Source: Candidatus Thorarchaeota archaeon (GTDB taxonomy: Archaea; Asgardarchaeota; Thorarchaeia; Thorarchaeales; Thorarchaeaceae). Taken from it: a DNA stretch of 17,476 nt. Below, one piece after another: positions 1-16,187 of the stretch (position 1 is the stretch's first letter; every line of letters starts with the position of its first letter). The translations under genes and the position numbers were made by a program. Below the pieces are notes generated by a model. It ran no database searches and had not been told where the DNA came from. It saw nothing but the letters and a program-made list of their open reading frames with translations. Location: positions 1-17,476 of the forward strand of contig JBHLRQ010000070.1 of NCBI GenBank assembly GCA_048882385.1, in the 5' to 3' direction.

Positions 1-764
1 ATTGCATGACCAATAGTGTGGCCAAAGTTCAATATCTCTCTCTTGCCTTTTTCTTCTCTCTCATCCGACTTGATAATTTGCGCTTTATTCCTAAGTGCTC
101 TCTCCACAACTTTTGTGAGGACTGTAGGATTTCTGAGAATTATTTCATTTCTGCTCTCAACAAGAATATGGAAAAGCTCTGGATCCATTGTCATACCATA
201 CTTAATGACTTCTGCTAGTCCTGCTAGAAAATCATTGGTCGGTAGTGAATTGAGGGTACAAACATCAACTATTACCGCATGAGGTTGATAGAATGTCCCA
301 ACAAGATTCTTTCCTTCACTTAGATTGACTCCTGTTTTTCCACCTATGGACGAATCGACCTGTGCCAAAAGAGTTGTAGGCACCTGAATTAGCATCATCC
401 CTCTTTTGAATGTTGAAGCGACAAACCCCGCGATATCACCAATAACACCTCCTCCGAGTGCAATTATTGCATCTGAACGTGTTGCTAGGTTTTCACTCAA
501 GCAAGCATACAAGTCTTTCACTGAATCCAGAGTTTTTACAGACTCACCAGCTTGCAGGATTATCGGTATGACTTCTATCTCTGAGGTGTTTAGTTTTCCA
601 ACTATAGAATCGAGGTAGAATGGAGTAATAACATCATCCGAAATTATGAATGCTCTGTCAAATGAGCCTTTTAGAATTTCATTGATTTCCACAATCAAAT
701 TCTGTCCAATATATACAGGATATTCTCTACTTTCCGTATATACATCGAATCTAGAATAAATCAT
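1..764 (-). CDS. aroB: 3-dehydroquinate synthase, AroB type (3' end runs off the window; absent from the ORF track)
   Basis: Manual translation from ATG at 764: MIYSRFDVYTESREYPVYIG...AGESVKT...ALGGGVIGDIAGFVASTFKRG...QVPTTLLAQVDSSIGGKTGVN...GKNLVGTFYQP...GLAEVIKYG...LNFGHTIGHA. These are diagnostic AroB motifs. The start overlaps the tyrA stop (ATGA, 764-761). Confidence 0.95.
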   Translation of the reverse strand, partial: MIYSRFDVYTESREYPVYIGQNLIVEINEILKGSFDRAFIISDDVITPFYLDSIVGKLNTSEIEVIPIILQAGESVKTLDSVKDLYACLSENLATRSDAIIALGGGVIGDIAGFVASTFKRGMMLIQVPTTLLAQVDSSIGGKTGVNLSEGKNLVGTFYQPHAVIVDVCTLNSLPTNDFLAGLAEVIKYGMTMDPELFHILVESRNEIILRNPTVLTKVVERALRNKAQIIKSDEREEKGKREILNFGHTIGHA

Positions 765-1615
765 GATTTGCATCCCTCCTCCATGACCTTGAGCACTCGG
801 TACATTTCTTGGTACTTGTCTTCAAGACTTAGTTTCTCTTCCAAGCTTGACTTGATATCAGAATATGATTTCTCGAATCCTTCAATGTCTGAAGTCAGCC
901 GTTTCACTTCTTCGATAGTCTTGGTCAGCAACTTCTGCAAGATCTCAGTGAAGTATGCATTTTCCTTGTGGAGTGCACGATGGAATTCGGATGTGTGTGA
1001 CATGATACTTCCTGTTAGCATGAATTGAACTGCGAATGTTGTACCACTGAGTTGTTGCATTAGAGAAATGTCTTCATCTTTCAAAACTGACGCAAAAATC
1101 ATATTCATGAAATAGGGAAGTGATAATGTTAGTGCCATTATACGGTCATGAATATCTGCTTCAACAACGATAATCTGTGATTTTGGAAATAGACTTTCAG
1201 CTACGTTTCTCTCTTCATGACTATCATGAACTGGAATTAACGCATATCTCTTCTTGAGAGTACTCGCACCCGGACCAAACAGAGGATGTATTGATAGTGG
1301 GCGAATATTGTCATGAGCTATTTTTCTCAGATCTTCTATTATGTTCGACTTTAGTGTTGATATCTCACAGAGAATAGAATTCTCTCTCATGTAAGGAATA
1401 ACTTCTCGAATGACTGATGTAGTGTCCTCCATTGGTACTGATATCAATACAACATCTGCTTTAGCTGCTGCCACATTGTTTGAAATCAACTCGAATCCTG
1501 ATTTACCCCCATTTGCTTTTGGATCTGCAACCATCACAGAATGACCAACTTCGAGGAAGTGATTAACTAACCATTTTCCCATTCTACCCGCTCCACCAAT
1601 AACTGCTATCTTCAT
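761..1615 (-). CDS. tyrA: Prephenate/arogenate dehydrogenase (TyrA family)
   Basis: N-terminal Rossmann motif IAVIGGAGRMG, ISVP, EISTLK, SIHPLFGP and HDRIMA motifs. ATGA overlap with the upstream gene at 1615-1612. Confidence 0.9.
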   Translation of the reverse strand: MKIAVIGGAGRMGKWLVNHFLEVGHSVMVADPKANGGKSGFELISNNVAAAKADVVLISVPMEDTTSVIREVIPYMRENSILCEISTLKSNIIEDLRKIAHDNIRPLSIHPLFGPGASTLKKRYALIPVHDSHEERNVAESLFPKSQIIVVEADIHDRIMALTLSLPYFMNMIFASVLKDEDISLMQQLSGTTFAVQFMLTGSIMSHTSEFHRALHKENAYFTEILQKLLTKTIEEVKRLTSDIEGFEKSYSDIKSSLEEKLSLEDKYQEMYRVLKVMEEGCKS

Positions 1616-3009
1616 CCTAGAAACTCCTCCATCCTCTTTGCAGCTTCAACAAGAATGTCCTCAGGTTGGCACACTGAGATTCTGAAAAAACGAGAGTATT
1701 CTTGTCCATAAGCTGTACCGGGCACAACTGCAACTCCCTGTTCATTGAGAAGCCTGTCTGTAAATTCAAGTCCATCCAAATTCTCATGGTTCAACTTGGG
1801 AAAGATATAGAATCCACCATCTGGTCTTAGAAGAGAGAGTGGGAGTTTTTCCAATTTGTCACATAATGCGATCTGTCTTTTCTCAATTATTGTGGCAAAT
1901 TCTTTGACTTCATCCAAAAGATCCAGTGCTTTCACTCCTGCATATTGAATGAACTCAGGTACACATGTGAGGGAAAGATTCTGTAATTTGATCATCTTCT
2001 GAACTGTTTCAGCATTAGAAATAGCATATCCAAGTCTGAACCCGGTCATCCCAAATGACTTTGAAAAGGAATTTACATAGATTTGATTGCACTCTGGAAA
2101 CTGAAGTGTGCTTGTGTGGGGTGTGAATGAAAATTCCGAGTATACCTCGTCACTAATAATACGAATTTCATTCTCAATTGAAATCTCTGCAATCTTTTCT
2201 ATTGTTGACTCATCTAGGATCTTTCCTGTTGGATTGCATGGACTGTTTAGTATTATCACTCTTGTGCTCTGATTGATGTTGTCTTCGAGTGATCCAATAT
2301 CCAGCTTCCATTCATTTTCCATTTGTGTTGAAACATGGACCGGTCTTCCACCGACCTGTCTGATGCAATCTGAGTAAGCTGGATAAGACGGATCAATGAT
2401 AATAGCTTCATCGCCTGGTCTGAGCGACACAGTTAGACCCAGGTACAAAGCAAATCGTCCACCAACAGTGGTTATAACTTGATCTACAGAGATATCCGTA
2501 CCAAGTACTCTATTCAGATGTTCAGCAATTTTTGTCCGAAGATCCTGGATTCCTGCTGACTGAGTATATCCACTCTGTCCACCTGCTATGGCATTTGTCA
2601 TTGATTCAACAACAGCAACTGGAGGACCAAAATCAGGCTCTCCCACTTCAAGATGAAAGACTTCTTTCCCTGCACTCTCCAGTTTTCTAGCCTTCACAAA
2701 GATGTGGTATGCAGTCTGGGGTACTTTAGTTTCAAAATGGCTTTCCTGTTTTCTTATGGACTCCGTTATGAGCTCATTGACAAGCCGTACCGCAAAATCA
2801 ATATCACTTGCATCTCTCCTACACTGTTCTACGACTTTTGCTTTGAGATTTCTTTCAACTTCTCTATCTACAAGTTCAATCCCTTTCTTAATCTTCTGAG
2901 CACCTATCCTTGCTGCAAGTTCACTCCTGCGACCTGCCAGGCTCACAATCTCCAACGTAAGTTGTTCCATCTCTTGTCTAAGGTCACCCAGGCTTACCTC
3001 TTCAGTCAT
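1612..3009 (-). CDS. Fusion of AroQ-type chorismate mutase (N-terminal ~90 aa) and class I/II PLP-dependent aminotransferase
   Basis: N-terminus LGDLRQE...RRSELAARIGAQK...VDREVE...ESIRKQ follows the AroQ pattern. C-terminus has GEPDF, NSPCNPTG, SDEVY and the PLP-lysine motif SFSKSFGMTGFRLG. SD AAGGAGG at 3026-3020. Confidence 0.9.
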   Translation of the reverse strand: MTEEVSLGDLRQEMEQLTLEIVSLAGRRSELAARIGAQKIKKGIELVDREVERNLKAKVVEQCRRDASDIDFAVRLVNELITESIRKQESHFETKVPQTAYHIFVKARKLESAGKEVFHLEVGEPDFGPPVAVVESMTNAIAGGQSGYTQSAGIQDLRTKIAEHLNRVLGTDISVDQVITTVGGRFALYLGLTVSLRPGDEAIIIDPSYPAYSDCIRQVGGRPVHVSTQMENEWKLDIGSLEDNINQSTRVIILNSPCNPTGKILDESTIEKIAEISIENEIRIISDEVYSEFSFTPHTSTLQFPECNQIYVNSFSKSFGMTGFRLGYAISNAETVQKMIKLQNLSLTCVPEFIQYAGVKALDLLDEVKEFATIIEKRQIALCDKLEKLPLSLLRPDGGFYIFPKLNHENLDGLEFTDRLLNEQGVAVVPGTAYGQEYSRFFRISVCQPEDILVEAAKRMEEFLG

Positions 3010-3092
3010 TGGACTATTTCCTCCTTTGTTACGCTACCTGAGCAACAATTATCGAGAGACCTTCCATTGTGTAGAATTGATTTTAGAGTCAT
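3006..3092 (-). CDS. Putative 28-aa upstream ORF (uORF3) whose TGA overlaps the chorismate mutase ATG
   Basis: ATG at 3092, MTLKSILHNGRSLDNCCSGSVTKEEIVQ*. ATGA overlap at 3009-3006. GGTGG lies 4 nt upstream of the ATG. Confidence 0.3.
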   Translation of the reverse strand: MTLKSILHNGRSLDNCCSGSVTKEEIVQ

Positions 3093-3108
3093 AGAACCAC
3101 CAAAACAA
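3049..3108 (-). CDS. Putative aromatic leader peptide 2 (uORF2), MFWWFYDSKINSTQWKVSR
   Basis: AGGTG-N7-TTG start followed by TTT TGG TGG TTC TAT, five consecutive aromatic codons. TAA stop at 3051-3049. Confidence 0.6.
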   Translation of the reverse strand: MFWWFYDSKINSTQWKVSR

Positions 3109-3132
3109 GTTACGACACCTATACAGCGTCGC
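3101..3132 (-). promoter_or_regulatory. Leader hairpin GCGACGCU-GUAUA-GGUGUCGU followed by U-rich AACUUGUUUU (candidate attenuator terminator and/or SD sequestrator of uORF2)
   Basis: 8-bp stem with three G-U pairs that work only on the minus-strand transcript. The loop and 3' arm contain AGGUG. Confidence 0.5.
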
Positions 3133-3156
3133 TAATCTTGACTAGCAGTCTATCAG

Positions 3157-3246
3157 CTAATAATAGCTATAATAGACGCCACTATACTGACAGTTTACTG
3201 TCAAGTATGTTCGAGTGGCAACTGCATTTTCCGTCAAGATTTTCAT
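3157..3246 (-). CDS. Putative Tyr-rich leader peptide 1 (uORF1), MKILTENAVATRTYLTVNCQYSGVYYSYY
   Basis: ATG at 3246 (alternative in-frame ATG at 3258), TAG at 3159-3157. 6 of 29 codons are Tyr, including 4 of the last 5. It lies upstream of the Tyr-branch genes. Confidence 0.7.
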   Translation of the reverse strand: MKILTENAVATRTYLTVNCQYSGVYYSYY

Positions 3247-3270
3247 TAAACTGTCCATCAGAAGTCTGAC

Positions 3271-3283
3271 CTAATATAGTTGG
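3271..3283 (-). promoter_or_regulatory. Possible TATA box of the aromatic operon
   Basis: Minus strand reads CCAACTATATTAG about 30 nt upstream of the uORF1 ATG, compatible with a near-leaderless transcript. Confidence 0.35.
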
Positions 3284-3367
3284 TGTTCAATGAGGAAAAT
3301 CCGCTCGTATAATGCATTAAGCTTAAGTGAGAATCAAAATACCTCATAATCTATTGAGGTCTTCATA

Positions 3368-5260
3368 TTGAGGATGCTACAGATTCACAGCGATGGCTTT
3401 GCCTATGAAGCCAAGAGAAAAGCACTGAAGAATGCAGAAGAAGTCAAAGAGAAGTTCTACAAGACTGATGACTCGTGCCTAGTCAATTTTATCGCTGCTG
3501 AAACTACAGATGCAAATGATGTAGCTAGTGCTGCAAAAGAAACTGCAGATATGATTGCCAGTGCCGCTGATGAGGTAAAAGAGAAAAATGTTGTAGTTTA
3601 TCCCTTTGTACATCTTAGCGAGAATCCTTCAAAGCCTAGTGTTGCCCTTAAGCTGTTGAAATCTGTGTCAAGAGACTTGGAAGTTCGAGGATTCAATGTA
3701 ATCCGTGTTCCATTCGGATGGTACAAAGCGTTTGAGCTTCATTGTAAAGGACATCCACTTGCAGAACGCTCAAAGGTTCTTGATGTGTCCAAGAAAATTG
3801 CTAAAGCTGCAGATGTCGAAGTCACTGAAGGAGAAGATCTCACTGCACTTGTTGCTGAAGAAAAAGCCTCATCAGCATTCTATATCATGGAACCAAATGG
3901 GAAAGTAACGGATGCAAGAGAGTTCGATTATTCCAAGTATAAGGAACTTGAGCTTTACATGAGATATGAAACTGCAAAAGACAGAATTGCTCGTGAACCA
4001 CCTGCACACATCGAGCTGATGAAACAGCTTGAACTAGTCGATTACGAGCCTGGTTCTGATGCGGGAAACTTCAGGTGGCCACCTCGAGGGCTTACTCTAA
4101 AGAAAGCAATTGAGGAGAGAGTTACTGCCGAGATGGTCGACTATGGTGCTCATGTACTTCAGACGCCTCTGATTTATGACTACCAACATCCCTCGCTGAA
4201 ATCATATCTCCAAAGATTTCCTTCTCGTCAATACGTTGTGAAATCAGGGGATCAAGACTATTTTGCTAGGTTCAGTGCATGCTTTGGACAATTCTTGCTT
4301 ATCTCCCAAGCAACTGTTTCACACAAGCAGTTACCCTTGAAGTTATTCGAGATTGCTCCATCTTTCCGGCGAGAGCAGAGCGGTGAACTAGCTGGAATGA
4401 GAAGATTAAGAGCATTCACGATGCCTGATATCCACGAAATCGTTGCTGATGAGAAGATGGCCAAAGCTGCTGTGATGAACCAGATAGAATTTGTTGAGAA
4501 ACTCCATATTGAACTAGAGGTTTCCTATGAAGTTTCATTTAGGGTTCTGAAAGAGTTCTATGAGAAAAACAAGAAATTCATGGAAAAGATAGCTGACCGG
4601 ATTGGGAAGCCAATTCTAATTGAGGTCTTTGACGAAAGATACGCATACTTCATCTTCAAGGGCGAATGGAATGTAGTTGATGCCCAGAAGAAGGCTGGCT
4701 GTCTTGGAACAATCCAAATCGATGTTGAAAATAGTGAACGCTTCAACATCACCTACGTTGACGAAGATGGCAAGGAGAAACACCCGCTCATTCTGCACAC
4801 TTCGCCATCTGGTGCTATCGAGAGGATCCTCTATGGGGTTCTAGAACAAGCATACAAGGATATGAAGAGTGGAAAGGTCCCGCACCTTCCCCTATGGATG
4901 ACTCCTGTTCAGGTGAGATTCGCACCAGTAGACGATAGTTACGTAGAATATTGTATTGAACTTGGAAAAACGCTTGATGCTGCAGGAATTCGATATGAGA
5001 TTGATGACAGATCACAAACAGTGGGCAAGAAAGTCCGATCTGCTGAGAAGCTCTGGATTCCTTACATTGTTGTCATTGGTGGGAAAGAAAAGAAGAGCCG
5101 AGAGCTATCGGTTCGAAGACGTGAGCTAAAGGATCAAGTGAATATGACAATTGACGATTTAGCAAAAGATGTAGAAGAGAAAACGAAATTTGCGCCCCAG
5201 CAACGGTTGCTTCTCCCGAATTTAGTTTCCAAGCAAGCAATCTTCTCAAGAGAAGTGTGA
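3368..5260 (+). CDS. thrS: Threonine--tRNA ligase, archaeal type with N-terminal editing domain
   Basis: Editing-domain motifs MRMLQIHSD, YPFVHLS, PFGWYKAF. Catalytic motifs RFSACFG, SFRREQSGE, RLRAFTMPDIH, ILHTSPSGAIER. C-terminal anticodon-binding domain. GAGGT-N7-TTG start. Confidence 0.97.
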   Translation: MRMLQIHSDGFAYEAKRKALKNAEEVKEKFYKTDDSCLVNFIAAETTDANDVASAAKETADMIASAADEVKEKNVVVYPFVHLSENPSKPSVALKLLKSVSRDLEVRGFNVIRVPFGWYKAFELHCKGHPLAERSKVLDVSKKIAKAADVEVTEGEDLTALVAEEKASSAFYIMEPNGKVTDAREFDYSKYKELELYMRYETAKDRIAREPPAHIELMKQLELVDYEPGSDAGNFRWPPRGLTLKKAIEERVTAEMVDYGAHVLQTPLIYDYQHPSLKSYLQRFPSRQYVVKSGDQDYFARFSACFGQFLLISQATVSHKQLPLKLFEIAPSFRREQSGELAGMRRLRAFTMPDIHEIVADEKMAKAAVMNQIEFVEKLHIELEVSYEVSFRVLKEFYEKNKKFMEKIADRIGKPILIEVFDERYAYFIFKGEWNVVDAQKKAGCLGTIQIDVENSERFNITYVDEDGKEKHPLILHTSPSGAIERILYGVLEQAYKDMKSGKVPHLPLWMTPVQVRFAPVDDSYVEYCIELGKTLDAAGIRYEIDDRSQTVGKKVRSAEKLWIPYIVVIGGKEKKSRELSVRRRELKDQVNMTIDDLAKDVEEKTKFAPQQRLLLPNLVSKQAIFSREV

Positions 5261-5485
5261 ACCAATTTCCAGTGTTATCACAAATCCACAGTGATACTAC
5301 TATCAACCATCCCAGGATTAAATGATAATCATACACATTCTGATCTTAGCTCATTTAATATCAACTCGTAGACATCACATTTGGAACTCTAGATATAGAA
5401 TCACATATCCCTGGCGCACTACGATAGTATTTTTACCCACCGAGACAACCTGCTAGATAACCATTGGTCTGAGGAGAGTAACAAC

Positions 5486-6628
5486 TTGAAGGTCCTTGTA
5501 CTGGGGTCAGGTCTAATGGGCAAAGGTGCAGCCTATGACCTGGTAAAACAAGACGAAATTGAACAAGTGATTGTCGCTGATATTGATCCAAAATGCTCTG
5601 AATCTCTAGCAAAAGAAGTGGGTCCTAAAGCTGTAGCTGAAACTGTTGATGCCACCAAGAAGAATCAGCTCGCCAAGGTGTTCTCCAAGGTTGATTCTGT
5701 GATCAGCGCTGTTAGCTACAAAGTGAATCATCTCCATACTCAAGTAGCGATAGAAACTGGCACACACATGTGCGATCTAGGGGGAAACAAGTTCGTAGTA
5801 GAGAAGCAGCTTGAGTTGCATGATCAAGCAAAAGATGCAGGTGTAACTGTAGTCCCTGATTGTGGTCTAGCTCCTGGAATGGTAAGCGTTCTTGCTAGAG
5901 AAGGAATTGAGTATCTTGACAGAGTTGAAGATGTGAAGATTCGTGTTGGAGGTCTCCAACAGGAACCACGACCACCACTGAATTATTCATTGATTTTCTC
6001 TGTTGAGGGTCTGATAAATGAGTACATCGAACCCTGTGTCGCTATACGAAATGGAGAGATAGTTACCGAGGATCCACTCGTAGGTTTCGAAGAAATCACC
6101 TTTCCAGAACCCTTTGGCAAACTTGAGGCTTTTAACACAAGTGGAGGTACCTCGACTCTACCACAAACCTACCTCGGCAAAGTGAATAACCTCGACTATA
6201 AGACAATCAGATATCCAGGACACGGACACAAGATGTGGTGTCTTATGAAACTCGGATTGATGGATAGCGAGGAGATTGATGCTCGAGGTGTGAAGATAGC
6301 ACCAAGACAAGTTCTTGAGTCCTTATTAGAAAAGAATCTACCACCTTCCGGTAAGGATGTGACTCTCCTTCGAGTTACAGTAGAAGGTTGGAAGGGCACT
6401 GAAGCAAGAATCGTCGAGTACGAAACTATCGATTACTTCGATGAAGAAACCGGACTCACTGCAATGATGCGGACAACGTCATTCCCAGCAGCTATAACTG
6501 CTATGATGATGGCGGATGGTCGCATAAGTGATAGGGGCGTTCTCACCCCTGAGAGGTGTATTCCTCCAGCTCCCTTCATAGAGGAGCTCAGAGCTAGAGG
6601 AATAGAAATCAAGCACAGAGTGATATGA
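5486..6628 (+). CDS. Saccharopine dehydrogenase / lysine 6-dehydrogenase family oxidoreductase
   Basis: VLVLGSGLMG Rossmann motif, DLGGN, DCGLAPG, EGLINEY, LEAFNTSGG, YKTIRYPGH, TAMMRTT. SD GAGGAG before the TTG. Confidence 0.85.
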   Translation: MKVLVLGSGLMGKGAAYDLVKQDEIEQVIVADIDPKCSESLAKEVGPKAVAETVDATKKNQLAKVFSKVDSVISAVSYKVNHLHTQVAIETGTHMCDLGGNKFVVEKQLELHDQAKDAGVTVVPDCGLAPGMVSVLAREGIEYLDRVEDVKIRVGGLQQEPRPPLNYSLIFSVEGLINEYIEPCVAIRNGEIVTEDPLVGFEEITFPEPFGKLEAFNTSGGTSTLPQTYLGKVNNLDYKTIRYPGHGHKMWCLMKLGLMDSEEIDARGVKIAPRQVLESLLEKNLPPSGKDVTLLRVTVEGWKGTEARIVEYETIDYFDEETGLTAMMRTTSFPAAITAMMMADGRISDRGVLTPERCIPPAPFIEELRARGIEIKHRVI

Positions 6629-6731
6629 CCTCTAGGAATCAAATCTGCAAGATTTCGATAGACTTCTAATTCTGTACTACACCTAAACCTTATCAATACT
6701 AAAGCAAATCCTGCGAAGAGGTTCTCAATCT

Positions 6732-7436
6732 TTGAAAGTGTTAGTGATAAACGGTAGTCCTCGAAAAAATCATGGAGTGACAGCGTATCTTCTCAAGCAT
6801 TTCATTGATGGAATGGAAGAAGCAGATGCAGTAGTGGAGATTCTTTATTCTAAGGGCTTGGATCTTGGGGATTGTAGGGGGTGTTTCAATTGCTGGTCTA
6901 CAACTCCAGGAAAGTGTATCCAAGACGATGAAATGAAAGAAGTTCTTGCGAAGATAGCTGACGCGGATCTCCTCATTATCGCTACACCTGTATATGTAGA
7001 TGGAATGACAGGTTCTTTAAAGACACTTCTTGACCGTTCAATTCCACTACTTCACGGGGCCTTTGAGTTACGTGATGATCATTGTCGTCACGCTTTGCGT
7101 GACCATGTTAAAGCTGGAAAGATAGCGCTCTTTTCGGTATGTGGCTTCTATGAGATGGACAACTTTAACCCATTAATCAGCCATGTCAAAGCTATAAGTA
7201 AGAACATGAATCGTGAATACATCGGTGCTCTTTTACGTCCGTATGGATGGATTGTCGAGGGAGGTATAAGCCAAGGGTTTAAACTCGAGTACATACTCGA
7301 TGCAATAAAAGAGGCTGGTAACCAGCTAATCTCTAAAGGGGCAATGAATGAAGAAACACTAGCAACCATTGCTAGTGAGATTGTTCCAAGAGACAGAGTC
7401 ATCGCGATGCTTAAACAGAATTATGGTGATAAGTAA
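6732..7436 (+). CDS. Iron-sulfur flavoprotein / NADPH-dependent FMN reductase (flavodoxin-like) family
   Basis: INGSPRK FMN loop, CxxCxxCx7C (CRGCFNCWSTTPGKC), ATPVY, LKTLLDR. Confidence 0.88.
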   Translation: MKVLVINGSPRKNHGVTAYLLKHFIDGMEEADAVVEILYSKGLDLGDCRGCFNCWSTTPGKCIQDDEMKEVLAKIADADLLIIATPVYVDGMTGSLKTLLDRSIPLLHGAFELRDDHCRHALRDHVKAGKIALFSVCGFYEMDNFNPLISHVKAISKNMNREYIGALLRPYGWIVEGGISQGFKLEYILDAIKEAGNQLISKGAMNEETLATIASEIVPRDRVIAMLKQNYGDK

Positions 7437-7465
7437 AAATTGCGTAGAAGGAAATCACTATTCAT

Positions 7466-8392
7466 ATGATTATTCAAACAAATCATATGATAGAAGAGAT
7501 TCATCAAGATGAACTAAATGCAATTGGTCCACTCATTGACAAGTATAGAGAGCAATTTCCTGAAAGAATACCTGAGAATTTCTTGAATAGGATCAAAGAA
7601 TCTGTTGCAGATGACAAAGCCTGTGTTTTCGGTGCGTATTCAGAAGGTCATTCAGTGACCGGAATCGCACTTTTTGGGAAAGTGAGTAAGCGGATTAATT
7701 TTGTATATGGAATGGGCGACATTGAAACTGAGAAGAAACTTGTGACTGCTCTATTTGACCGATTCTCTGATGAGTTCTCCTACATTGGCACAGGAGGTCC
7801 ATGGATACCGGAGGAACTGGCAAAGCACATCCAAGAGATTGGTTTTGGGAGATACGACCGAATGTACATGACCCTTCCTCGTGCAGGTATTGAATCCCTT
7901 GATGAGCCAAAGTTGCCTGATGGTATGAGCTTCAATCCATATACTCCTGAACTACGTGAGGAGATATCTCAAGTTGTTTTCGAAGGGAACGATAATCATG
8001 TAGACCAAAGCGTATTTCCAGAATTCTTTGGTACTATTGAAGCTTGTCAGCGTCTTCTAGAAAACATTGAGGACAACAGATATGGTGAGTATCGAGAGTC
8101 ATTGTCCTGGATTCTAAGAAGAAATGGAGAAGCAATTGGTGCCTGTTTCATGACGGTCAGGAATGGGGATATGGGGTATGTCCCTGAAATCGTAATCAAC
8201 AAGGAATATCGGGGCAAGAAACTGGGGAAATCAATCCTTGTTCATTCAATGAAGAGGTTACTAGAGTCTGATTCGGATCTAATCAAAGTGGATCTTGACG
8301 TAACCCTGAGTAATCACGCAAGGTTTCTGTATGAGTCACTTGGGTTTACGAAGGTTCAAGATTATACTATGTACACTTGGATTAGGAAATAG
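7466..8392 (+). CDS. GNAT family N-acetyltransferase (true start may be 7487)
   Basis: C-terminal acetyl-CoA motif INKEYRGKKLGK and NHARFLYESLGF. Confidence 0.85.
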   Translation: MIIQTNHMIEEIHQDELNAIGPLIDKYREQFPERIPENFLNRIKESVADDKACVFGAYSEGHSVTGIALFGKVSKRINFVYGMGDIETEKKLVTALFDRFSDEFSYIGTGGPWIPEELAKHIQEIGFGRYDRMYMTLPRAGIESLDEPKLPDGMSFNPYTPELREEISQVVFEGNDNHVDQSVFPEFFGTIEACQRLLENIEDNRYGEYRESLSWILRRNGEAIGACFMTVRNGDMGYVPEIVINKEYRGKKLGKSILVHSMKRLLESDSDLIKVDLDVTLSNHARFLYESLGFTKVQDYTMYTWIRK

Positions 8393-8528
8393 TAGAATCA
8401 TTGATATTCATTTGTAGTGAATAGAATTTCAATTTAACACGCGGAAGGTACAATTAAGCAGAATTGATCGTGACTGAAGATAGAATAATTGATGTCCTCT
8501 TGTAATCCGAAATTAGGAAAATAATATG

Positions 8529-8595
8529 TGCATAGTAACGTACGCATAATAATGTGTACATAATAATGTATATATATGATTTAGATTCATATATA
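8529..8595. repeat. Three tandem 14-bp dyad boxes plus a 9-bp inverted repeat upstream of the HTH gene (candidate operator)
   Basis: TGCATAGTAACGTA (8529-8542), CGCATAATAATGTG (8543-8556), TACATAATAATGTA (8557-8570). Inverted repeat TATATATGA-N7-TCATATATA (8571-8595). Confidence 0.6.
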
Positions 8596-8596
8596 C

Positions 8597-8890
8597 TTGA
8601 TTAGAATGAAACTTCCACTCTCAGCCCCACGAGTTGATTTAGCTAAGGCGATGGTTGCAGTATTGCAGGCATTAAAGGAGGCTCCTTCATTGTCGATTGC
8701 TGGAATATCAAAAGCAACTGGCATTGATCGACGAACAGTGGCAAAAGCTGTTGATCTGATATTAAATGTCCAAAGGAGCCTGGCATCTCAACGCATGGAA
8801 AAAGAGAAGGTGGGGAAGAGGTGGGTAATATCCCTAAGGAAGCGGACTTCTGATTTCATTGGCAGTGCAAAGAAAAAAGTGAAACGGTGA
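8597..8890 (+). CDS. Small basic helix-turn-helix DNA-binding protein (start may be ATG 8606)
   Basis: LSIAGISKATGIDRRTVAKAV is an HTH-like segment, followed by a wing-like KVGKRWVISL and a Lys/Arg-rich C-terminus. Confidence 0.7.
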   Translation: MIRMKLPLSAPRVDLAKAMVAVLQALKEAPSLSIAGISKATGIDRRTVAKAVDLILNVQRSLASQRMEKEKVGKRWVISLRKRTSDFIGSAKKKVKR

Positions 8891-8900
8891 TTCTTTTTCC

Positions 8901-9431
8901 ATGTCATTGAACATACGCAATTTTACTTATCTACTCGCCTTTGTTGTTCTTTCTACAACCACATCACATCAAATGTGGATTTATTTTCAATGGAGAATGA
9001 TTCCTCATCTCCTGCTAATCCTACTTGTATCAGTGATTGGCGAGAACTTTGTATCAGCACAAGGATATTATCATTATACCAAACAAGAGCAAAATGGAAT
9101 CTTTGTCCGAAATATGCCTCTCTGGATCATGTTCCTTTGGTTATTCTGTATACAAGGAAGTCTATTGATCCCATACATTCTGGGTTTTGATCCTGTTTCA
9201 ACCATCTTAGCATCTGGATTCATAGCTTCTATGGTCGACATTATCCTTTTTGAGCCATACATGAGTAGACGAAGGGGATTATGGTTGTGGACTTCAGTTA
9301 ATAATGGGTACTTCGAATTCATCCCATCCAAGTTAAATCGATTCACTGCTCCACCTGGAAACTACATTACTTGGTTCATGTTTCCGATTCTAGCCAACTG
9401 TTTTCTGGCATTACTGATGATACCTCTCTAG
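8901..9431 (+). CDS. Integral membrane protein resembling the carotenoid biosynthesis (CruF-like hydratase) family
   Basis: Hydrophobic helices with spaced motifs GE...GYYHY, NMPLWIMFLW, D..LFEP, LWLW, PPGNYITWF that match the remembered CruF family pattern. Confidence 0.55.
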   Translation: MSLNIRNFTYLLAFVVLSTTTSHQMWIYFQWRMIPHLLLILLVSVIGENFVSAQGYYHYTKQEQNGIFVRNMPLWIMFLWLFCIQGSLLIPYILGFDPVSTILASGFIASMVDIILFEPYMSRRRGLWLWTSVNNGYFEFIPSKLNRFTAPPGNYITWFMFPILANCFLALLMIPL

Positions 9432-9476
9432 TGGGAAAACTCGATGCATTAATCTAGATGGTAGTATAATCCTGCA

Positions 9477-10712
9477 ATGATGTTAACAATGGGCAAATAC
9501 AGTAATATCTATGCAAAAATCTGTGATGCTCGTGAAGTTCTCAAAGACATTAAGCATGTGACGCGACTTGATTCATCATCTACTTTCAGTAGATTCACAG
9601 GTGGGCATGTCTATCTCAAGTTAGAAAACCTCCAGAAAACTGGGTCCTTTAAGGTGCGAGGAGCCGCCTACGCCATGTCGCAGCTCACAGATGAAGAAAA
9701 GCAAGCTGGAGTTATCGCTGCAAGTGCAGGAAATCATGCACAAGGAGTAGCATATGCTGCGACAAGATTGGGTCTTAATTCAACTATTGTCATGCCAGTG
9801 TTTTCACCTGTGGCAAAAATACAAGCTACTCAGGGATATGGAGCAAATGTTGTTTTGCATGGAACTAGTTTCGATGATGCGTTAGCTCATGCTAGAGAAA
9901 CAGCTGAAGCAACAGCGGCAACATTTCTACATCCCTTCAATGATGAGGATGTAATCGCAGGTCAGGGAACAATTGGTCTTGAGATTCTAGATGATTGTCC
10001 TGACGTTGACATAATTGCTGTCCCTGTGGGCGGAGGCGGTCTTGTTTCAGGAATTGCTATTGCTGTGAAAGAACAGAAACCTGAGGTTCAGATCTACGGA
10101 GTAGAAGCCGCTAGTGCAGCATCAATGAAGGCATCAATTGAAAGTGGAAAAATTACTGGAGTAAAAAATCTTGACACTGTGTGTGACGGAATTGCAGTGA
10201 AGAAACCAGGGAAACTGACATTTAAGATTGCAAAGGATCTTCTTTCTGGCGTTGTCACAGTAGAGGAATTAGAAGTAACACGTACGCTGTTCATGCTTCT
10301 GGAAAGGGCGAAAATAGTTGTAGAACCGGCTGGATGTGTGGGTCTCTCAGCTTTCCACCACAAGAAGATTGACATCGCAAAGAAGAATGCTGTTGCTGTT
10401 CTTTCAGGAGGCAATATCGATATGTCCTTCCTCTCAAAGGTAGTTGAGAAGGAGCTCTTCCGACTTGGTCGTTCAGTCCGTGTTCGGGGATCAATTCTGG
10501 ATAGGGTCGGAAGTATGAGTAGGATTCTCAAGATTGTAGCTGAATCCGGTGTCAGTATAATTGAGATTAATCAAGACAGATTCGATCCTGATATACCACC
10601 AAACAGAGCTGAACTTGAAATGATTCTTGAAGTTCCAGATGAAACTGCAGTCAAGAGACTATTGAAGATGCTGAATGAAAAGGGTCTCAACTTCAGAATC
10701 TATGAGGATTGA
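9477..10712 (+). CDS. ilvA: Threonine ammonia-lyase (dehydratase) with C-terminal ACT-like domain
   Basis: KLENLQKTGSFKVRGA PLP-lysine motif, ASAGNHAQGVA, VGGGGL, SGGNID. C-terminal DRVGSMSRIL ACT-like segment. Confidence 0.93.
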   Translation: MMLTMGKYSNIYAKICDAREVLKDIKHVTRLDSSSTFSRFTGGHVYLKLENLQKTGSFKVRGAAYAMSQLTDEEKQAGVIAASAGNHAQGVAYAATRLGLNSTIVMPVFSPVAKIQATQGYGANVVLHGTSFDDALAHARETAEATAATFLHPFNDEDVIAGQGTIGLEILDDCPDVDIIAVPVGGGGLVSGIAIAVKEQKPEVQIYGVEAASAASMKASIESGKITGVKNLDTVCDGIAVKKPGKLTFKIAKDLLSGVVTVEELEVTRTLFMLLERAKIVVEPAGCVGLSAFHHKKIDIAKKNAVAVLSGGNIDMSFLSKVVEKELFRLGRSVRVRGSILDRVGSMSRILKIVAESGVSIIEINQDRFDPDIPPNRAELEMILEVPDETAVKRLLKMLNEKGLNFRIYED

Positions 10713-10732
10713 ATCTACTTCAAAACTGAAAA

Positions 10733-12526
10733 CTAGACTAGTGGTAGACTCGACATTGCTACAATAGCCAGCATGAATGCAGTAAGAATCACAGCTGGCC
10801 ATGTATTCTCGAATTCTACTGCTGCATACACTGTAACAATTGTTGTGAACAATTGTACAACCATAATGAGTAAAATCAGGAGACCGAGGAGGACCATCTT
10901 ACCAGCTATAAGACCCAATGCAGTTGTTCCAAAGACCACAGCAATGGCTAGAAGTGAAGCTACGGCGAATTTGGATATGAATGCAAAAATGACTGATTTG
11001 GTTGTTGGATATCTTCCAGTCCAATCCCTCTTGCTTAGTAATAACCCCCTAATCCATGCTGCTTCAACAAGTAGGAAAGGAACTGACAGAATTGCGACGA
11101 TTACTGTGTTGAGTGCTCGATCTCCAACTGGCCATTTTACGAGAGCAATGATCGTGTATGGAGTCATTGTATCAGGAATACCAGCAATTACTAGCCAGAA
11201 CATGACCCAAGCGATTGGAATCGCTGTAATGAATAGGCTCTTCAAAATATCTTCTACATGCATTCTAATTTTCAGACGCTCTATTCCAACGGATTTGAGA
11301 GCTAGTGACGCGTTCTCTCTGCCAATAAAGAGATACATCAGTACTAGTACTGCTATCATACTAAGGAAATAATAGAGTAGTAAACCAGTAGCAAACATAG
11401 AATTTGGCCAAGCAAGTCCAATGTTTTCCAAGTGAAATCCAGAAGCTGCTGTTATCGCATAGATTGTGATAGTAACTGCTCCTAGAATTGAGCTGACGAT
11501 GAAGGTCTTTGGTATATTGAGTGATTTAGTGGCATTAGTAATCTTGCGAGGTTTCAATCTATCTGGTAAAAAGCTATAGACTAGAATCATTAGTGGTAAT
11601 GTCGATATAAGAAGGAATGTGGCTCCTGTGAATGTAGCGATTGTCTTGTTGAAATATACCTGACTCTTAGGATCAAGTGTATGCTGCAATTGAGCTTCTC
11701 CCTGAACTGCTTCAACAAGCCATGTGATAGTTTCACTTACAATTGTACTATCAACTGCTTCAAAGACATGATCGGTTGGTGCGAATGCTAGACGATAAGC
11801 AGTCTGGTTGATGAAAGAACCATATGTGACACCCGCCTCAGCTGATGAGTTTCCTGTAGCTGTTCTAATTGCTTCTAGAGCAGCTTCATTCGAGATCATC
11901 TCATCGTATTCACCAACAGCTATTATCAAATTGCCCGGAAAGTCAAGATACTCTCCTAAAGCCATCTGACCAACATTTCCCACAGCTGCATATGCAATGG
12001 GTGCAATTGGGAAATCTTGTAGCTGAATTGCTACACGAAAGCCAAGTGAATGTGAGATGACGCCATAGCTCTCATTGTGGATGTTCGGGTATGTAGTTTG
12101 AACATGACGTAGTGCATAATACGCGTCTTGAGCTATTGTTTCATAATCTGTTACAATGAATGGAAGTGTGGAATCTCCATGGCCCGGCAAGTCCATCGAA
12201 ACGACTGTGAAGTTTCTTCTAGCGAGTTCTATATTGAATGCATACATTCCTTCTTTCGATCCTGCTATTCCATGGAGTGAAAGAATGATTGGCGTAGGTT
12301 CAAGATCGCCTCCCAATGCTTCAACTCTAGGAGAGTAGACCAGAATCTCTACAGGTCTACCAGGCTCTCTTTCCAAAGAGATTCTTTCGACGTTGACAGC
12401 ACCCATCCCTCTATCAACTGACCAAGACAAGTAGAGTGATGACCCAATTAGAATGGTCAGTATGAATATTGTGAAGTAGATGGGTTGTCGATTCATATTG
12501 ACTCTCCTCAATTCTCCCAGTGACAT
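10733..12526 (-). CDS. Membrane-anchored alpha/beta hydrolase fused to a multi-pass transmembrane domain
   Basis: N-terminal TM, LHGIAGS oxyanion motif, DLPGHGDS, nucleophile SHSLG, GEYDE, TDHVFE. The C-terminal ~300 aa are multiple hydrophobic helices. Confidence 0.8.
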   Translation of the reverse strand: MSLGELRRVNMNRQPIYFTIFILTILIGSSLYLSWSVDRGMGAVNVERISLEREPGRPVEILVYSPRVEALGGDLEPTPIILSLHGIAGSKEGMYAFNIELARRNFTVVSMDLPGHGDSTLPFIVTDYETIAQDAYYALRHVQTTYPNIHNESYGVISHSLGFRVAIQLQDFPIAPIAYAAVGNVGQMALGEYLDFPGNLIIAVGEYDEMISNEAALEAIRTATGNSSAEAGVTYGSFINQTAYRLAFAPTDHVFEAVDSTIVSETITWLVEAVQGEAQLQHTLDPKSQVYFNKTIATFTGATFLLISTLPLMILVYSFLPDRLKPRKITNATKSLNIPKTFIVSSILGAVTITIYAITAASGFHLENIGLAWPNSMFATGLLLYYFLSMIAVLVLMYLFIGRENASLALKSVGIERLKIRMHVEDILKSLFITAIPIAWVMFWLVIAGIPDTMTPYTIIALVKWPVGDRALNTVIVAILSVPFLLVEAAWIRGLLLSKRDWTGRYPTTKSVIFAFISKFAVASLLAIAVVFGTTALGLIAGKMVLLGLLILLIMVVQLFTTIVTVYAAVEFENTWPAVILTAFMLAIVAMSSLPLV

Positions 12527-12593
12527 AAAGGTGACGATTTACGTTCCTCTAAGATTATCAATGTGGGTAAATCTGCATAAATATCGGGAATAT

Positions 12594-12615
12594 GGAGAGT
12601 TGTTTCTAGCTCTCC
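12594..12615 (-). terminator. Short hairpin directly after the tdh stop codon
   Basis: GGAGAG-N10-CTCTCC inverted repeat adjacent to the TAG. There is no strong U tract. Confidence 0.3.
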
Positions 12616-13584
12616 CTAATACTTAATCCCAAGTTTCTTTGATAATTTGTCCAGCATGTCTTTGGTCATTGCTGCAAGATCATAATCTGGTTTCCAACCC
12701 CACTCTTCACGAGCTGCATTGTCATCTAAAGACGCTGGCCATGACTCAGCAATCTGCTGTCTGAAGTCTGGTTCATAACTCATCTCAAACTCAGGTATGT
12801 GCTTCTTTATTTCTGCGGCAATCTCCTCGGGTGCGAAGCTCATTGCAGTAATGTTGAAGCTTCTGTGTTTGAGCTTGCTTGCATCTGCTTCAATCAAGTC
12901 TATTGTGCATTTCAAACAGTCTGGCATATACATCATGGGAAGGTAGGTACCCTGGTCAAGGAATGATGTGTATTTCTTGTTCTTGAGGGCTTCATAAAAG
13001 ATTTCAACAGCATAGTCAGTAGTACCTCCACCTGGAAGAGCTTCTGCACTGATAATACCAGGATATCTGAGCGATCGGAAGTCCATACCATAGCGTTTTA
13101 CGTAGTACTCTCCCCACAACTCTATGAAGACTTTTGATACTCCATATGCTGTTGTAGGTCGCATGATTACATCATTTGGAGTGTTTTCTTTAGGAGTACT
13201 TGGCCCAAACGCTGCAATTGAACTCGGAATCATTACTTGGTCGAGATTAAGGATTCTGACAGCTTCAAGAACATTGTACGCACCTTCAATGTTTGTGCGA
13301 TATGCCAACTGTGGATTTTTCTCTCCAGTTCCAGAGAGAAGCGATGCGTTGTGAATCACGATATCAATATCATTATCAACCAACATGGCGTGAAGCTGGT
13401 TTGTATCGAGTACATCTAATTGTAAGTATGGTCCATCTTTCTTCAAGATAGCAGGAGGTTTTTTCCTACCAGTGGCTACAACATTCTCGCCACCATATTT
13501 CTTCCTCAAAGCACCAATAAGCTCAGTACCAATTTGACCATAACTACCAGTAACCAGAATCCGTTTCATTCTATCATCTCTCAA
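12616..13584 (-). CDS. tdh: SDR-type (GalE-like) L-threonine 3-dehydrogenase (likely start ATG 13569)
   Basis: ILVTGSYGQIG, PSSIAAFG, YGVSK (YxxxK), the family-typical PGGGTTDYAV and LPMMYMPDC, and RQQIAESWP. Confidence 0.88.
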   Translation of the reverse strand: MRDDRMKRILVTGSYGQIGTELIGALRKKYGGENVVATGRKKPPAILKKDGPYLQLDVLDTNQLHAMLVDNDIDIVIHNASLLSGTGEKNPQLAYRTNIEGAYNVLEAVRILNLDQVMIPSSIAAFGPSTPKENTPNDVIMRPTTAYGVSKVFIELWGEYYVKRYGMDFRSLRYPGIISAEALPGGGTTDYAVEIFYEALKNKKYTSFLDQGTYLPMMYMPDCLKCTIDLIEADASKLKHRSFNITAMSFAPEEIAAEIKKHIPEFEMSYEPDFRQQIAESWPASLDDNAAREEWGWKPDYDLAAMTKDMLDKLSKKLGIKY

Positions 13585-13658
13585 GATTCGATGTAACCAA
13601 GCGACTGGCCGAGTTGTCTCCGTTTTAAGTGTTCTTGAAGGCGTTTAGGATTAGATTG

Positions 13659-13695
13659 ATATCATATTTGGAGATTATAATATCGTATTTGGAGA
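13659..13695. repeat. 16-bp direct repeat, 21-bp period, in the divergent tdh / membrane protein intergenic region
   Basis: ATATCATATTTGGAGA (13659-13674) and ATATCGTATTTGGAGA (13680-13695), one mismatch. Confidence 0.75.
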
Positions 13696-13711
13696 GTGGA
13701 GTGACTAGATA

Positions 13712-14374
13712 ATGGATGTACCAAGTGAACTGCGATGGGTCGGTCCATTATTTGCGATATTGTATTCCATTTTCTGGGGAACGCGCGCCTTTGCACCTTT
13801 ACTAGCGATATTCGGGCTCGCCCTGTTTGTATTTGCTGTTTCAGTCATTCTTGTTCCAATAATAATTATAATTGCATTTTTTGCATCCAAAACGCGGTTT
13901 CGATATGCCATACTCATTCTGTGTATCAGCTTTTTCTTTTCAGGAATATCAATAGAACCTATTCCAATTCCCTACCCTGAACCTTATCCTTATCCTTACC
14001 CTCCTTATTCTCCAGCGCCTCGATTTATGTATAATCTGTCGCCAATTTTTATTGTTCTGCTTTTCATATCTTCTTCAGGATATTTGCATATTCCCGAAAT
14101 TGTGTTAGGAGGATTTTTGCTACTTATCGTAATGGCAATCTTATCCGCAATTATCATGGCTCTTGCTACTGAATGTAGAATAGATGCAGTTCGTGCAATG
14201 ATATCTTTCGTATCGTTGATAGTCTGTTGGACTTTTATCCCGGTCTTCCTATATCCATACCTTGATCCATACATCTTCATGACACCAGTTCCACTAGGTC
14301 CCCTAATTGCCCTGAATTTGCTACCACGAACACCTGTACTCAAAAGTGAATCTAGGAAGGTCCTATCTAGCTAG
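13712..14374 (+). CDS. Hypothetical multi-pass membrane protein with Pro/Tyr repeat loop
   Basis: About 6 hydrophobic helices. Loop EPIPIPYPEPYPYPYPPYSP. Confidence 0.7.
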   Translation: MDVPSELRWVGPLFAILYSIFWGTRAFAPLLAIFGLALFVFAVSVILVPIIIIIAFFASKTRFRYAILILCISFFFSGISIEPIPIPYPEPYPYPYPPYSPAPRFMYNLSPIFIVLLFISSSGYLHIPEIVLGGFLLLIVMAILSAIIMALATECRIDAVRAMISFVSLIVCWTFIPVFLYPYLDPYIFMTPVPLGPLIALNLLPRTPVLKSESRKVLSS

Positions 14375-14454
14375 TCACATGCGTCAAACCTTCGTTTTTT
14401 ATTATATTTCGACTCACCCCTGTTTGCTATATTGAGAAAGGAGTAAAAGCAGGA

Positions 14455-16074: not shown

Positions 16075-16112
16075 GAGACCAACATTCGGTCTCCACCATT
16101 TTCTTTTGATTT
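16074..16112 (+). terminator. Hairpin plus T-tract terminator after the SBBP gene
   Basis: GGAGACC-AACATTC-GGTCTCC (perfect 7-bp stem) followed by ACCATTTTCTTTTGATTT. Confidence 0.65.
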
Positions 16113-16187
16113 GAATGTTCTAAGATTAGATTGATATTTGTCATCATCAATAGTTATGCGGAGGTTTCGAGGAGGGTCGTGGAAGGT

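Follow-up and report, generated by a model that had tools for sequence, protein, structure and literature searches.

The subject of this analysis is a candidate regulatory leader near the beginning of contig JBHLRQ010000070.1 in GenBank assembly GCA_048882385.1, from a Candidatus Thorarchaeota archaeon; the window is the whole stretch that was analysed, positions 1 to 17,476 of the contig (17,476 nucleotides, nt). NCBI taxonomy places Candidatus Thorarchaeota within Promethearchaeati, the NCBI name for the Asgard archaea. The element is best explained as the 5′ regulatory leader, ~250 nt long, of a tyrosine/aromatic operon in this Thorarchaeota-type (Asgard) archaeon. Leader and operon are both encoded on the minus strand, to which the coordinates below refer unless stated otherwise.

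The operon opens with a gene for a fusion of chorismate mutase (CM_2) and a class I/II aminotransferase (1612..3009, 465 amino acids), preceded by the Shine-Dalgarno (SD) sequence GGAGG at 3024-3020. It continues with a prephenate dehydrogenase-like gene (761..1615, 284 amino acids) and a 3-dehydroquinate synthase gene (3..773), which runs off the window and matches DHQ_synthase with 155 bits and DHQS_C with 76 bits. The fusion of chorismate mutase with a class I/II aminotransferase is an uncommon architecture. The operon carries the only CM_2 match and, in the prephenate dehydrogenase-like gene, the only PDH_N match of the genome, whose assembly is 95% complete, so that the link to these genes fits tyrosine.

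Upstream of the fused gene lie, in order of transcription, a TATA box (TATATTA, 3272..3278) that is invariant in a six-sequence alignment and would act as the leader promoter, a Tyr-rich leader open reading frame (ORF1, 3157..3246), a series of predicted stems within and behind ORF1, and a second small ORF (ORF2, 3006..3092) that reaches the fused gene. ORF1 comprises 29 codons (MKILTENAVATRTYLTVNCQYSGVYYSYY) and ends in a TAG stop at 3159-3157. Six of its codons specify Tyr (codons 14, 21, 25, 26, 28, and 29), four of these within the last five, and the tail reads YSGVYYSYY-stop. The binomial probability of finding at least six Tyr in 29 codons is 5e-4 to 1.4e-3. An in-frame ATG further upstream (3258, giving 33 codons) is not conserved, and only the ATG at 3246 is kept in relatives.

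Conservation of the leader and its tyrosine codons

When the chorismate-mutase domain was used as a query, 24 of 86 genomes of the family, representing 7 of its 16 genera, proved to carry the fused gene, and the leader layout precedes the gene at all 23 loci with upstream DNA, the 24th being cut by a contig end. Within the genus of the source organism, the full-length fused gene is present in the source genome and in six further members, all seven with the leader; among these six congeners it lies on one contig in five and is spread over two contigs in G021. The core of the same-genus leader is ~95% identical, while the encoded proteins are only 50-63% identical. A blastn search with the leader over the 86 family genomes gave matches in 14. 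Seven are strong and all belong to the same genus, three are weak and come from diverged leaders upstream of the same fused gene in three other genera, and the remaining four genomes match over 20 nt only, corresponding to the ribosome-binding site (RBS) and start of an unrelated gene. Pattern scans also recovered two further genus-type leaders on metagenome contigs and, among named genomes, four same-genus leaders, all in Candidatus Thorarchaeota metagenome-assembled genomes.

In a sample of 400 genomes of the phylum, strong mutase-domain matches are confined to this family. Outside it, 18 of 314 genomes have weak chorismate-mutase matches only, and six stand-alone mutase loci that were inspected there have no Tyr-rich upstream ORF. 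Weak chorismate-mutase matches also occur in two frames of 463-470 amino acids (G037:C1:48759-49040 and G392:C16:2826-3086) from another family, in genomes of ~1.3-1.4 Mb, and these frames may represent an independent fusion. Five congeners of the source organism without the fused gene (G001, G012, G014, G018, and G024; 91-99% complete) have no PDH_N match, and only some members of the genus appear to have retained a tyrosine branch together with its leader. The leader would mark which members of the family retain their own tyrosine pathway.

Counterparts of ORF1 are found at all 23 loci, with 29-32 codons at 21 of them and 26 and 23 codons at the other two. Insertions and deletions between genera measure 3 or 6 nt, and the other two frames across the region are interrupted by stops in 23/23 sequences. 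Over these loci Tyr accounts for 107 of 679 ORF1 codons (15.8%), compared with 3.54% in the long ORFs of the genome, and its codons show synonymous variation (TAT:TAC = 86:21). The tails in relatives include CQYSGYYSYYL, QFSGYYSYSYSL, LYSGSYSYGA, LYSGYYWYTL, and CYSGFYYFIL, the most divergent being VFYHSYRDHR. The position of the start codon relative to the promoter is equally regular: the ATG or GTG of ORF1 lies 31-33 nt from the first T of a TATA-like box at 20 of 21 scored loci, and at the 21st the distance from the TATA box to the conserved ATG is 31 nt. The usual archaeal TATA-to-start distance would put the 5′ end of the transcript at or just before the ORF1 start. Because this spacing is fixed, ORF1 is probably leaderless, with transcription probably starting at, or within a few nucleotides of, its start codon.

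Conservation of the tail can also be read as a property of the peptide rather than of its codons, in which case YSG.Y.Y would be an arrest peptide sensing tyrosine or an intermediate, or ORF1 would encode a small protein active in itself. TnaC and the fungal arginine attenuator peptide are arrest peptides of this kind, acting in the exit tunnel. The C-terminal motif is conserved as amino acids across seven genera and the N-terminal half diverges; moreover, a ribosome held at the ORF1 stop codon would occupy just the position that covers the segment behind it, termed X below, which takes part in alternative pairings. Yet a portion of the motif, AGUGG, doubles as the 3′ arm of a stem within ORF1 (P2a), so RNA pairing can explain why the motif is conserved. 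Residues inside the motif vary, with V, F, Y, S, or I at one position and Y, Q, H, or L at the end, and the peptide has no protein family match. The sign of such a response is awkward for a biosynthetic operon as well, since more tyrosine would lead to arrest at the stop codon, an open ORF2 start, and more expression. An active peptide is given little credence as the explanation of ORF1.

RNA fold and alternative pairings

The first-pass annotation had described a multi-stem RNA on the minus strand, and its stems are borne out. Folding of 3241-3101 gives a minimum free energy (MFE) of -52.5 kcal/mol, more stable than all of 200 dinucleotide shuffles (z-score -5.37), and the MFE structure contains every stem that had been named, at the coordinates given for it; the plus strand of the same region folds more weakly (-41.4 kcal/mol, z -4.77). 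The outermost stem, P1, joins AAUCUUGAC (3233..3241), which corresponds to codons 2-5 of ORF1, to GUCAAGAUU (3134..3142) over 9 bp, and is accompanied by a short GCA/UGC pairing at 3225-3223/3147-3145. Inside ORF1 lies the long hairpin P2 (3178..3219), with its component stems P2a (GCCACU/AGUGGC) and P2b (GACAG/CUGUC). Next comes the hairpin P3 (3148..3177), which encloses the codons V-Y-Y-S-Y-Y-stop, and thus the YYSYY-stop run as had been claimed, and beyond P1 a further hairpin, Pt, occupies 3112..3132. Folded alone, P2 reaches -17.4 kcal/mol (z -4.7), P3 -11.1 kcal/mol (z -3.9), and Pt -10.2 kcal/mol (z -3.8), in each case with 0/200 shuffles as good; the P1 duplex has a z of -2.6, with 1/200 as good. 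The 3′ arm of P3, the intervening UGC, and the 3′ arm of P1 together make up segment X (3134..3156). The earlier suggestion that G-U pairs favour the minus strand as the transcript agrees with the homologues, in which P1 and P2 show changes from U-A to U-G and from C-G to U-G; these would be mismatches on the other strand, which supports the minus strand as the transcript.

The fold is conserved well beyond the genus. RNAalifold, applied to 14 leaders from five other genera, recovers P1, P2a, and P2b. In all cases the partners in P1 are the beginning of ORF1, at its first codons, and the segment following its stop, and in the genera designated g25 and g28, whose sequences were read by eye, it reaches onto the GUG start codon itself. 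A covariation test was made on the 20 pairs of P1, P2a, and P2b, in which 91.8% of cells form standard pairs, compared with 32-39% when the partner is slid by 1-3 columns, and six pairs, with 25 cells, have both partners changed. With 0.331, compared with 0.035-0.069, the covariation score is reached by 0/500 shuffles, a control that overstates significance for related sequences, a flaw of which the slid controls are free.

Compensatory changes in homologues thus bear out P1, P2a, and P2b, but none is available for P3, whose paired bases are identical in all nine genus-type sequences, including the two metagenome copies, in both of which P3 is unchanged; the apical loop is shortened in one copy by a 1-nt deletion. 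Because of this identity, the support for P3 is thermodynamic. P3 was not found in the other six genera, where the Tyr-codon run is predicted to be unpaired, yet is the best-conserved stretch, with the YSG.Y.Y motif kept. The junction sequences differ between genera.

Stems that are strong and that covary, as P1 and P2 do, would also be expected of a non-coding RNA folded to recognise a metabolite, a protein, or a tRNA, with the reading frame and its Tyr codons as by-products of the fold. Several features of ORF1 fit such an RNA: within the genus its substitutions sit mostly in loops and are often non-synonymous, a compensatory change from A-U to G-C turns a Cys codon into Arg, and all four middle bases occur in codon 2. 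However, no Rfam family matches, the whole window giving 0 hits at gathering thresholds and positions 2950-3320, searched at E values up to 10, giving only noise (E 7.6). Since the junctions change from genus to genus, the RNA offers no candidate ligand core, and outside the genus the most conserved unpaired stretch is the run of Tyr codons. Frame, start, length, and stop are kept in 23/23 sequences despite ~50% divergence in the middle region, with all indels in frame, and the occurrence of Tyr codons before a tyrosine operon would have to be a coincidence. A purely structural RNA is accordingly regarded as quite improbable. The loop-biased, non-synonymous changes, taken together with the kept frame, indicate instead that the RNA fold and the Tyr-codon frame are both constrained, and the rest of the peptide is not.

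Two further pairings had been proposed to compete with the 3132-3112 hairpin, namely a duplex of 3186-3175 with 3130-3120, offered as an antiterminator, and the hairpin UGCUAGU-CAAG-AUUAGCG (3147-3130). Both exist in the window, at -10.3 and -5.1 kcal/mol, respectively, but neither is conserved. In the six other same-genus homologues the duplex amounts to -2.6 to -4.1 kcal/mol and does not outperform shuffled sequence (means of -3.2 to -6.6 kcal/mol), and the hairpin to 0 to -0.9 kcal/mol. Both vanish as conserved elements and look, on this sequence comparison, like chance features of one sequence. No conserved antiterminator overlapping the 5′ arm of the 3132-3112 hairpin was found in the homologues, and no complement to that arm recurs in X.

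The alternative that does recur concerns X itself, which can pair either with the 5′ end of ORF1, forming P1, or with a stretch here called the mimic (3090..3110). The mimic consists of the pyrimidine tract CUUGUUUU, the SD sequence GGUGG at 3101-3097, and the ORF2 AUG at 3092-3090, and within it all 23 sequences share T..TGG.G and ATG without exception. The resulting long hairpin carries Pt at its tip. When the 5′ arm is left out, most of the 23 sequences adopt it as the MFE structure of their 3′ part; in the window, 3160-3085 folds as one such hairpin at -24.6 kcal/mol (z -2.9, 2/200 shuffles as good). When partners are swapped between genera, X:mimic duplexes average -15.0 kcal/mol for cognate strands and -11.4 kcal/mol over 426 cross-genus pairs, 15.7% of which reach the cognate mean. 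The same test on P1 gives -12.3 kcal/mol for cognate and -8.1 kcal/mol for cross-genus strands, with 8.9% reaching the cognate mean. Against dinucleotide shuffles, the X:mimic duplex has z-scores of -1.9 to -2.6 in genus g25, -2.7 to -4.4 in genus g26, and -3.4 in one same-genus member. In g25 and g26, where the duplex is thus clear, cognate strands also outscore those from different genera.

The placement of Pt invites a more classical interpretation, in which the 3132-3112 hairpin and its U-rich tail would form a conditional transcription terminator before ORF2, set by the ribosome on ORF1. A Tyr-rich leader ORF is exactly what transcription attenuators carry. The sequence of Pt is variable between species, and every homologue nevertheless retains a hairpin in this position, with a U/C-rich tract behind it in each case; a bacterial-type terminator scan flags Pt itself (8-bp stem, tail AACTTGTTTT), with three terminator-like sites in the region compared with 0.4 expected. 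Archaeal intrinsic termination, however, is usually linked to longer oligo-T runs, and the longest T-run before GGUG in the 23 sequences is 5 in one, 4 in 11, and 2-3 in 11. The antiterminator candidate proposed earlier is specific to the window. Because the U/C tract can also serve as the 3′ strand of the X:mimic helix, as a copy of the 5′ arm of P1, its conservation can be explained without termination, and a ribosome at the ORF1 stop would, for a footprint of generally accepted size, end ~15 nt short of the Pt hairpin. A transcription attenuator of the classical type is, on balance, unlikely.

A proposed relay ORF and ribosome-based switch

ORF2 has 28 codons in the window and is present at 24/24 loci, where it ranges from 25 to 52 codons and is poorly conserved in sequence between genera. 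What is uniform is its placement. GGUG stands 4-9 nt upstream of its AUG in 24/24 loci, and at every one of them the main gene, the fused gene, has an in-frame start at -8 to +5 nt relative to the first base of the ORF2 stop; this is the first in-frame start in 14, and an upstream in-frame start is also present in the other 10. In the window the ORF2 stop (TGA, 3008-3006) and the main-gene ATG overlap as ATGA. This is the geometry of termination-reinitiation coupling, and since the ORF2 stop overlaps the main start, ribosomes translating ORF2 would be expected to continue into the main gene. In several genera, purine tracts that resemble an SD sequence and closely precede the main start are covered by predicted hairpins within ORF2, most clearly in g22 and g28, the tract lying ~15 nt from the start in g28.

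The RBS and start of ORF2, 15 nt in all, have a counterpart elsewhere in the family. In another genus (L041-L044 and L047; genomes G084, G072, G083, and G073), an identical stretch of 20 nt (TTGGTGGTTCTATGA...) stands before a conserved but unrelated ORF that has ~75 codons and CPAC-type cysteines, which marks the stretch as a genuine translation start there. In some genera ORF2 itself contains Tyr-rich motifs: VYFSGYY, resembling the sensor motif of ORF1, in one (L071, G047), and DYLSY.VYT in another (L057, L066, and L070; G094, G092, and G093). These motifs could reflect a duplication, or Tyr-codon sensing at a second level.

These features are explained most economically by a switch that depends on where the ribosome stands, and a variant in which an anti-SD segment is the target had been among the options of the first-pass annotation; the mutually exclusive folds proposed with it did not hold up, as they are not conserved. 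The Tyr-rich leader may well let the ribosome report the supply of tyrosine. The sequences show the parts of the leader, their conservation, and the two possible partners of X; beyond this, we infer a response to Tyr, its sign, and an output that is translational rather than transcriptional. The whole, a tyrosine sensor that would rely on the ribosome and act chiefly at the level of translation, by way of a relay ORF, is put forward tentatively, as quite possible rather than as probable.

In the proposed scheme ORF1 would be the sensor, and the position of the ribosome on it would select the partner of X. Ribosomes on the 5′ part of ORF1 would free X from P1, and X would then sequester the start of ORF2, turning expression off. 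When tyrosine is short, a ribosome stalled on the Tyr codons would have passed the 5′ arm and stopped short of X, allowing the 5′ arm to capture X during transcription; closure of P1 would block further initiation at ORF1 and leave the ORF2 RBS open, turning expression on. A ribosome running to the stop codon would occupy X until the mimic is transcribed, after which X would pair locally with the mimic, and continued translation of ORF1 would keep the 5′ arm busy. Translation of ORF2 would pass ribosomes to the main gene by termination-reinitiation. This kinetic scheme is a best guess, chosen as the one that would give a physiologically sensible sign.

Equilibrium folding with 28-nt ribosome masks was used to model footprints, at each codon of the ORF1 tail and in five ribosome states, the readout being the mean predicted accessibility of the ORF2 SD and AUG. 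Accessibility is 0.38 in the free RNA, falls to 0.25 when the 5′ arm is masked (it is lower in 20/23 sequences), amounts to 0.35 for a ribosome that has the last Tyr codon in its A site and a queue of ribosomes behind it, and is 0.40 with the stop codon in the A site. At equilibrium, a modelled ribosome stalled at the sensor codons does not prevent the X:mimic duplex. The expectation that footprint constraints would switch the RNA between folds was disappointed, no clean switch appearing and the changes being modest and inconsistent, and this modelling does not settle the sign of regulation.

Several results weigh against a tyrosine sensor of this design. In the same model a single ribosome with the last Tyr codon in its A site gives an accessibility of 0.35, compared with 0.38 in the free RNA, and a ribosome at codons 23-26 lowers accessibility in five of seven same-genus sequences, so that expression would be predicted to fall when Tyr is limiting if the effect were simply steric. 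At -54.9 kcal/mol, the closed fold has an advantage of ~13 kcal/mol over P2 combined with the X:mimic hairpin (-42.0 = -17.4 + -24.6), so that the X:mimic alternative needs ribosomes on ORF1 or kinetics. The X:mimic duplex in the window is no better than composition-matched shuffles (z -0.9, 38/200 as good), and in three other genera (g22, g27, and g28) it neither stands out clearly from shuffles nor is cognate-specific. P3, the stem around the control codons, shows no covariation over its nine sequences. Finally, it is the spacing from the TATA box that speaks for the probable leaderless start of ORF1; a genome-wide histogram of TATA-to-start distances has no clear leaderless peak, with counts too low to be informative.

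In the source genome, ORF1 has no evident sister. A strict genome-wide scan for promoter-proximal small ORFs with a tail rich in one residue gave 13 hits, among which ORF1 is the sole aromatic one; two Leu-rich hits were checked as possible sister leaders, and both lie inside long ORFs. A looser scan gave 71 candidates, none of which, without individual examination, is obviously tied to a cognate pathway. Prephenate dehydratase is encoded elsewhere in the genome (contig C187, 870-1403, minus strand), with no obvious leader and no Phe-rich leader ORF upstream; its gene adjoins an apparent tRNA-like or structured GC-rich segment. No Chorismate_bind (TrpE-type) and no HisG match was found in this 95% complete genome, so leaders for Trp and His are impossible here as far as these genes are truly absent, and the organism may lack tryptophan and histidine synthesis yet possess a tyrosine branch. 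On the other side of the leader promoter, the divergent neighbour on the plus strand, starting at 3368, encodes a threonyl-tRNA synthetase with the archaea-specific editing domain. Between the promoter and this gene, at 3341-3360, lies a 6-bp inverted repeat with an 8-nt loop that the bacterial-type scan flags as terminator-like on both strands.

Comparison with known regulatory systems

Leader-peptide attenuation is a textbook bacterial mechanism, and the geometry of the trpL, pheL, and hisL attenuators is equally familiar. The thorarchaeal leader resembles them in having a short ORF rich in codons for the end product before a biosynthetic operon and embedded in stems, and a hairpin with a U-rich tail after this ORF. 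It differs from them in its archaeal host, its seemingly leaderless ORF, its short U-run, and the lack of a match to any Rfam leader family. In addition, a stem joining the first codons to the region after the stop encloses the whole ORF, no conserved antiterminator was found among the homologues, and a second, coupled small ORF stands between sensor and gene. The system can be described as an archaeal variant of leader-peptide attenuation whose output is probably translational. Riboswitches and T-box leaders have a conserved ligand- or tRNA-binding core and a family match, and in these respects the thorarchaeal element, with its differing junctions and no Rfam match, is unlike them.

Among translational systems, the closest working precedent, by analogy, is offered by mycobacteria. 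There, leaderless poly-Cys small ORFs are reported to form the first cistron of their transcripts and to act as translational attenuators, with the Cys codons clustered toward the 3′ end; these codons themselves pair with the SD region, and a stalled ribosome covers them (Canestrari et al., bioRxiv 10.1101/834739). The thorarchaeal leader resembles them in its probably leaderless sensor, which would be the first cistron and has Tyr codons clustered near its 3′ end, and in a proposed output through a downstream RBS gated by an RNA duplex. In the thorarchaeal case, however, the segment able to pair with the RBS lies after the stop and can alternatively join the 5′ end of the ORF, the RBS under control would be that of the relay ORF instead of the enzyme gene, and the modelled stalled ribosome does not cover the anti-SD segment. 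The same source also outlines leaders of the ermCL and cat type, in which hairpins are rearranged according to the position of a ribosome on the leader ORF, so that a downstream SD is hidden or exposed (10.1101/834739). In leaders of this type the signal is a drug together with the nascent peptide rather than codon supply, and neither an enclosing 5′-3′ stem nor a relay ORF is part of the arrangement.

Eukaryotes control amino-acid genes through upstream ORFs (uORFs) as well, as in GCN4 and in the arginine attenuator peptide of CPA1 and arg-2. The likeness lies in two successive upstream ORFs before an amino-acid gene, in a host from the prokaryotic lineage most closely related to eukaryotes; scanning is not in evidence here, and the resemblance is conceptual only. 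For archaea, a ribosome-profiling study in Haloferax describes small ORFs in 5′ untranslated regions as "reminiscent" of uORFs (PMC10117724). Full-text searches of openly available main texts, assessed from titles and the openings of abstracts, returned no amino-acid-sensing leader peptide from an archaeon. The present system could plausibly, if not yet probably, be the first amino-acid-sensing leader-peptide regulator in Archaea, found in an Asgard lineage and built from a stem-enclosed leaderless Tyr sensor with bistable self-locking, its decision relayed by a coupled ORF.

A Tyr sensor conserved in seven Thorarchaeota-type genera would show that ribosome-based metabolite sensing exists in Archaea and that translation in these organisms proceeds in a manner permitting it, which would bear on transcription-translation coupling and on leaderless initiation in Asgard archaea. 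The proposed two-ORF relay is an architecture unlike that of the bacterial models compared here, and, if the proposal is true, control of amino-acid synthesis by ribosomes on an upstream ORF also operates in the closest archaeal relatives of eukaryotes.

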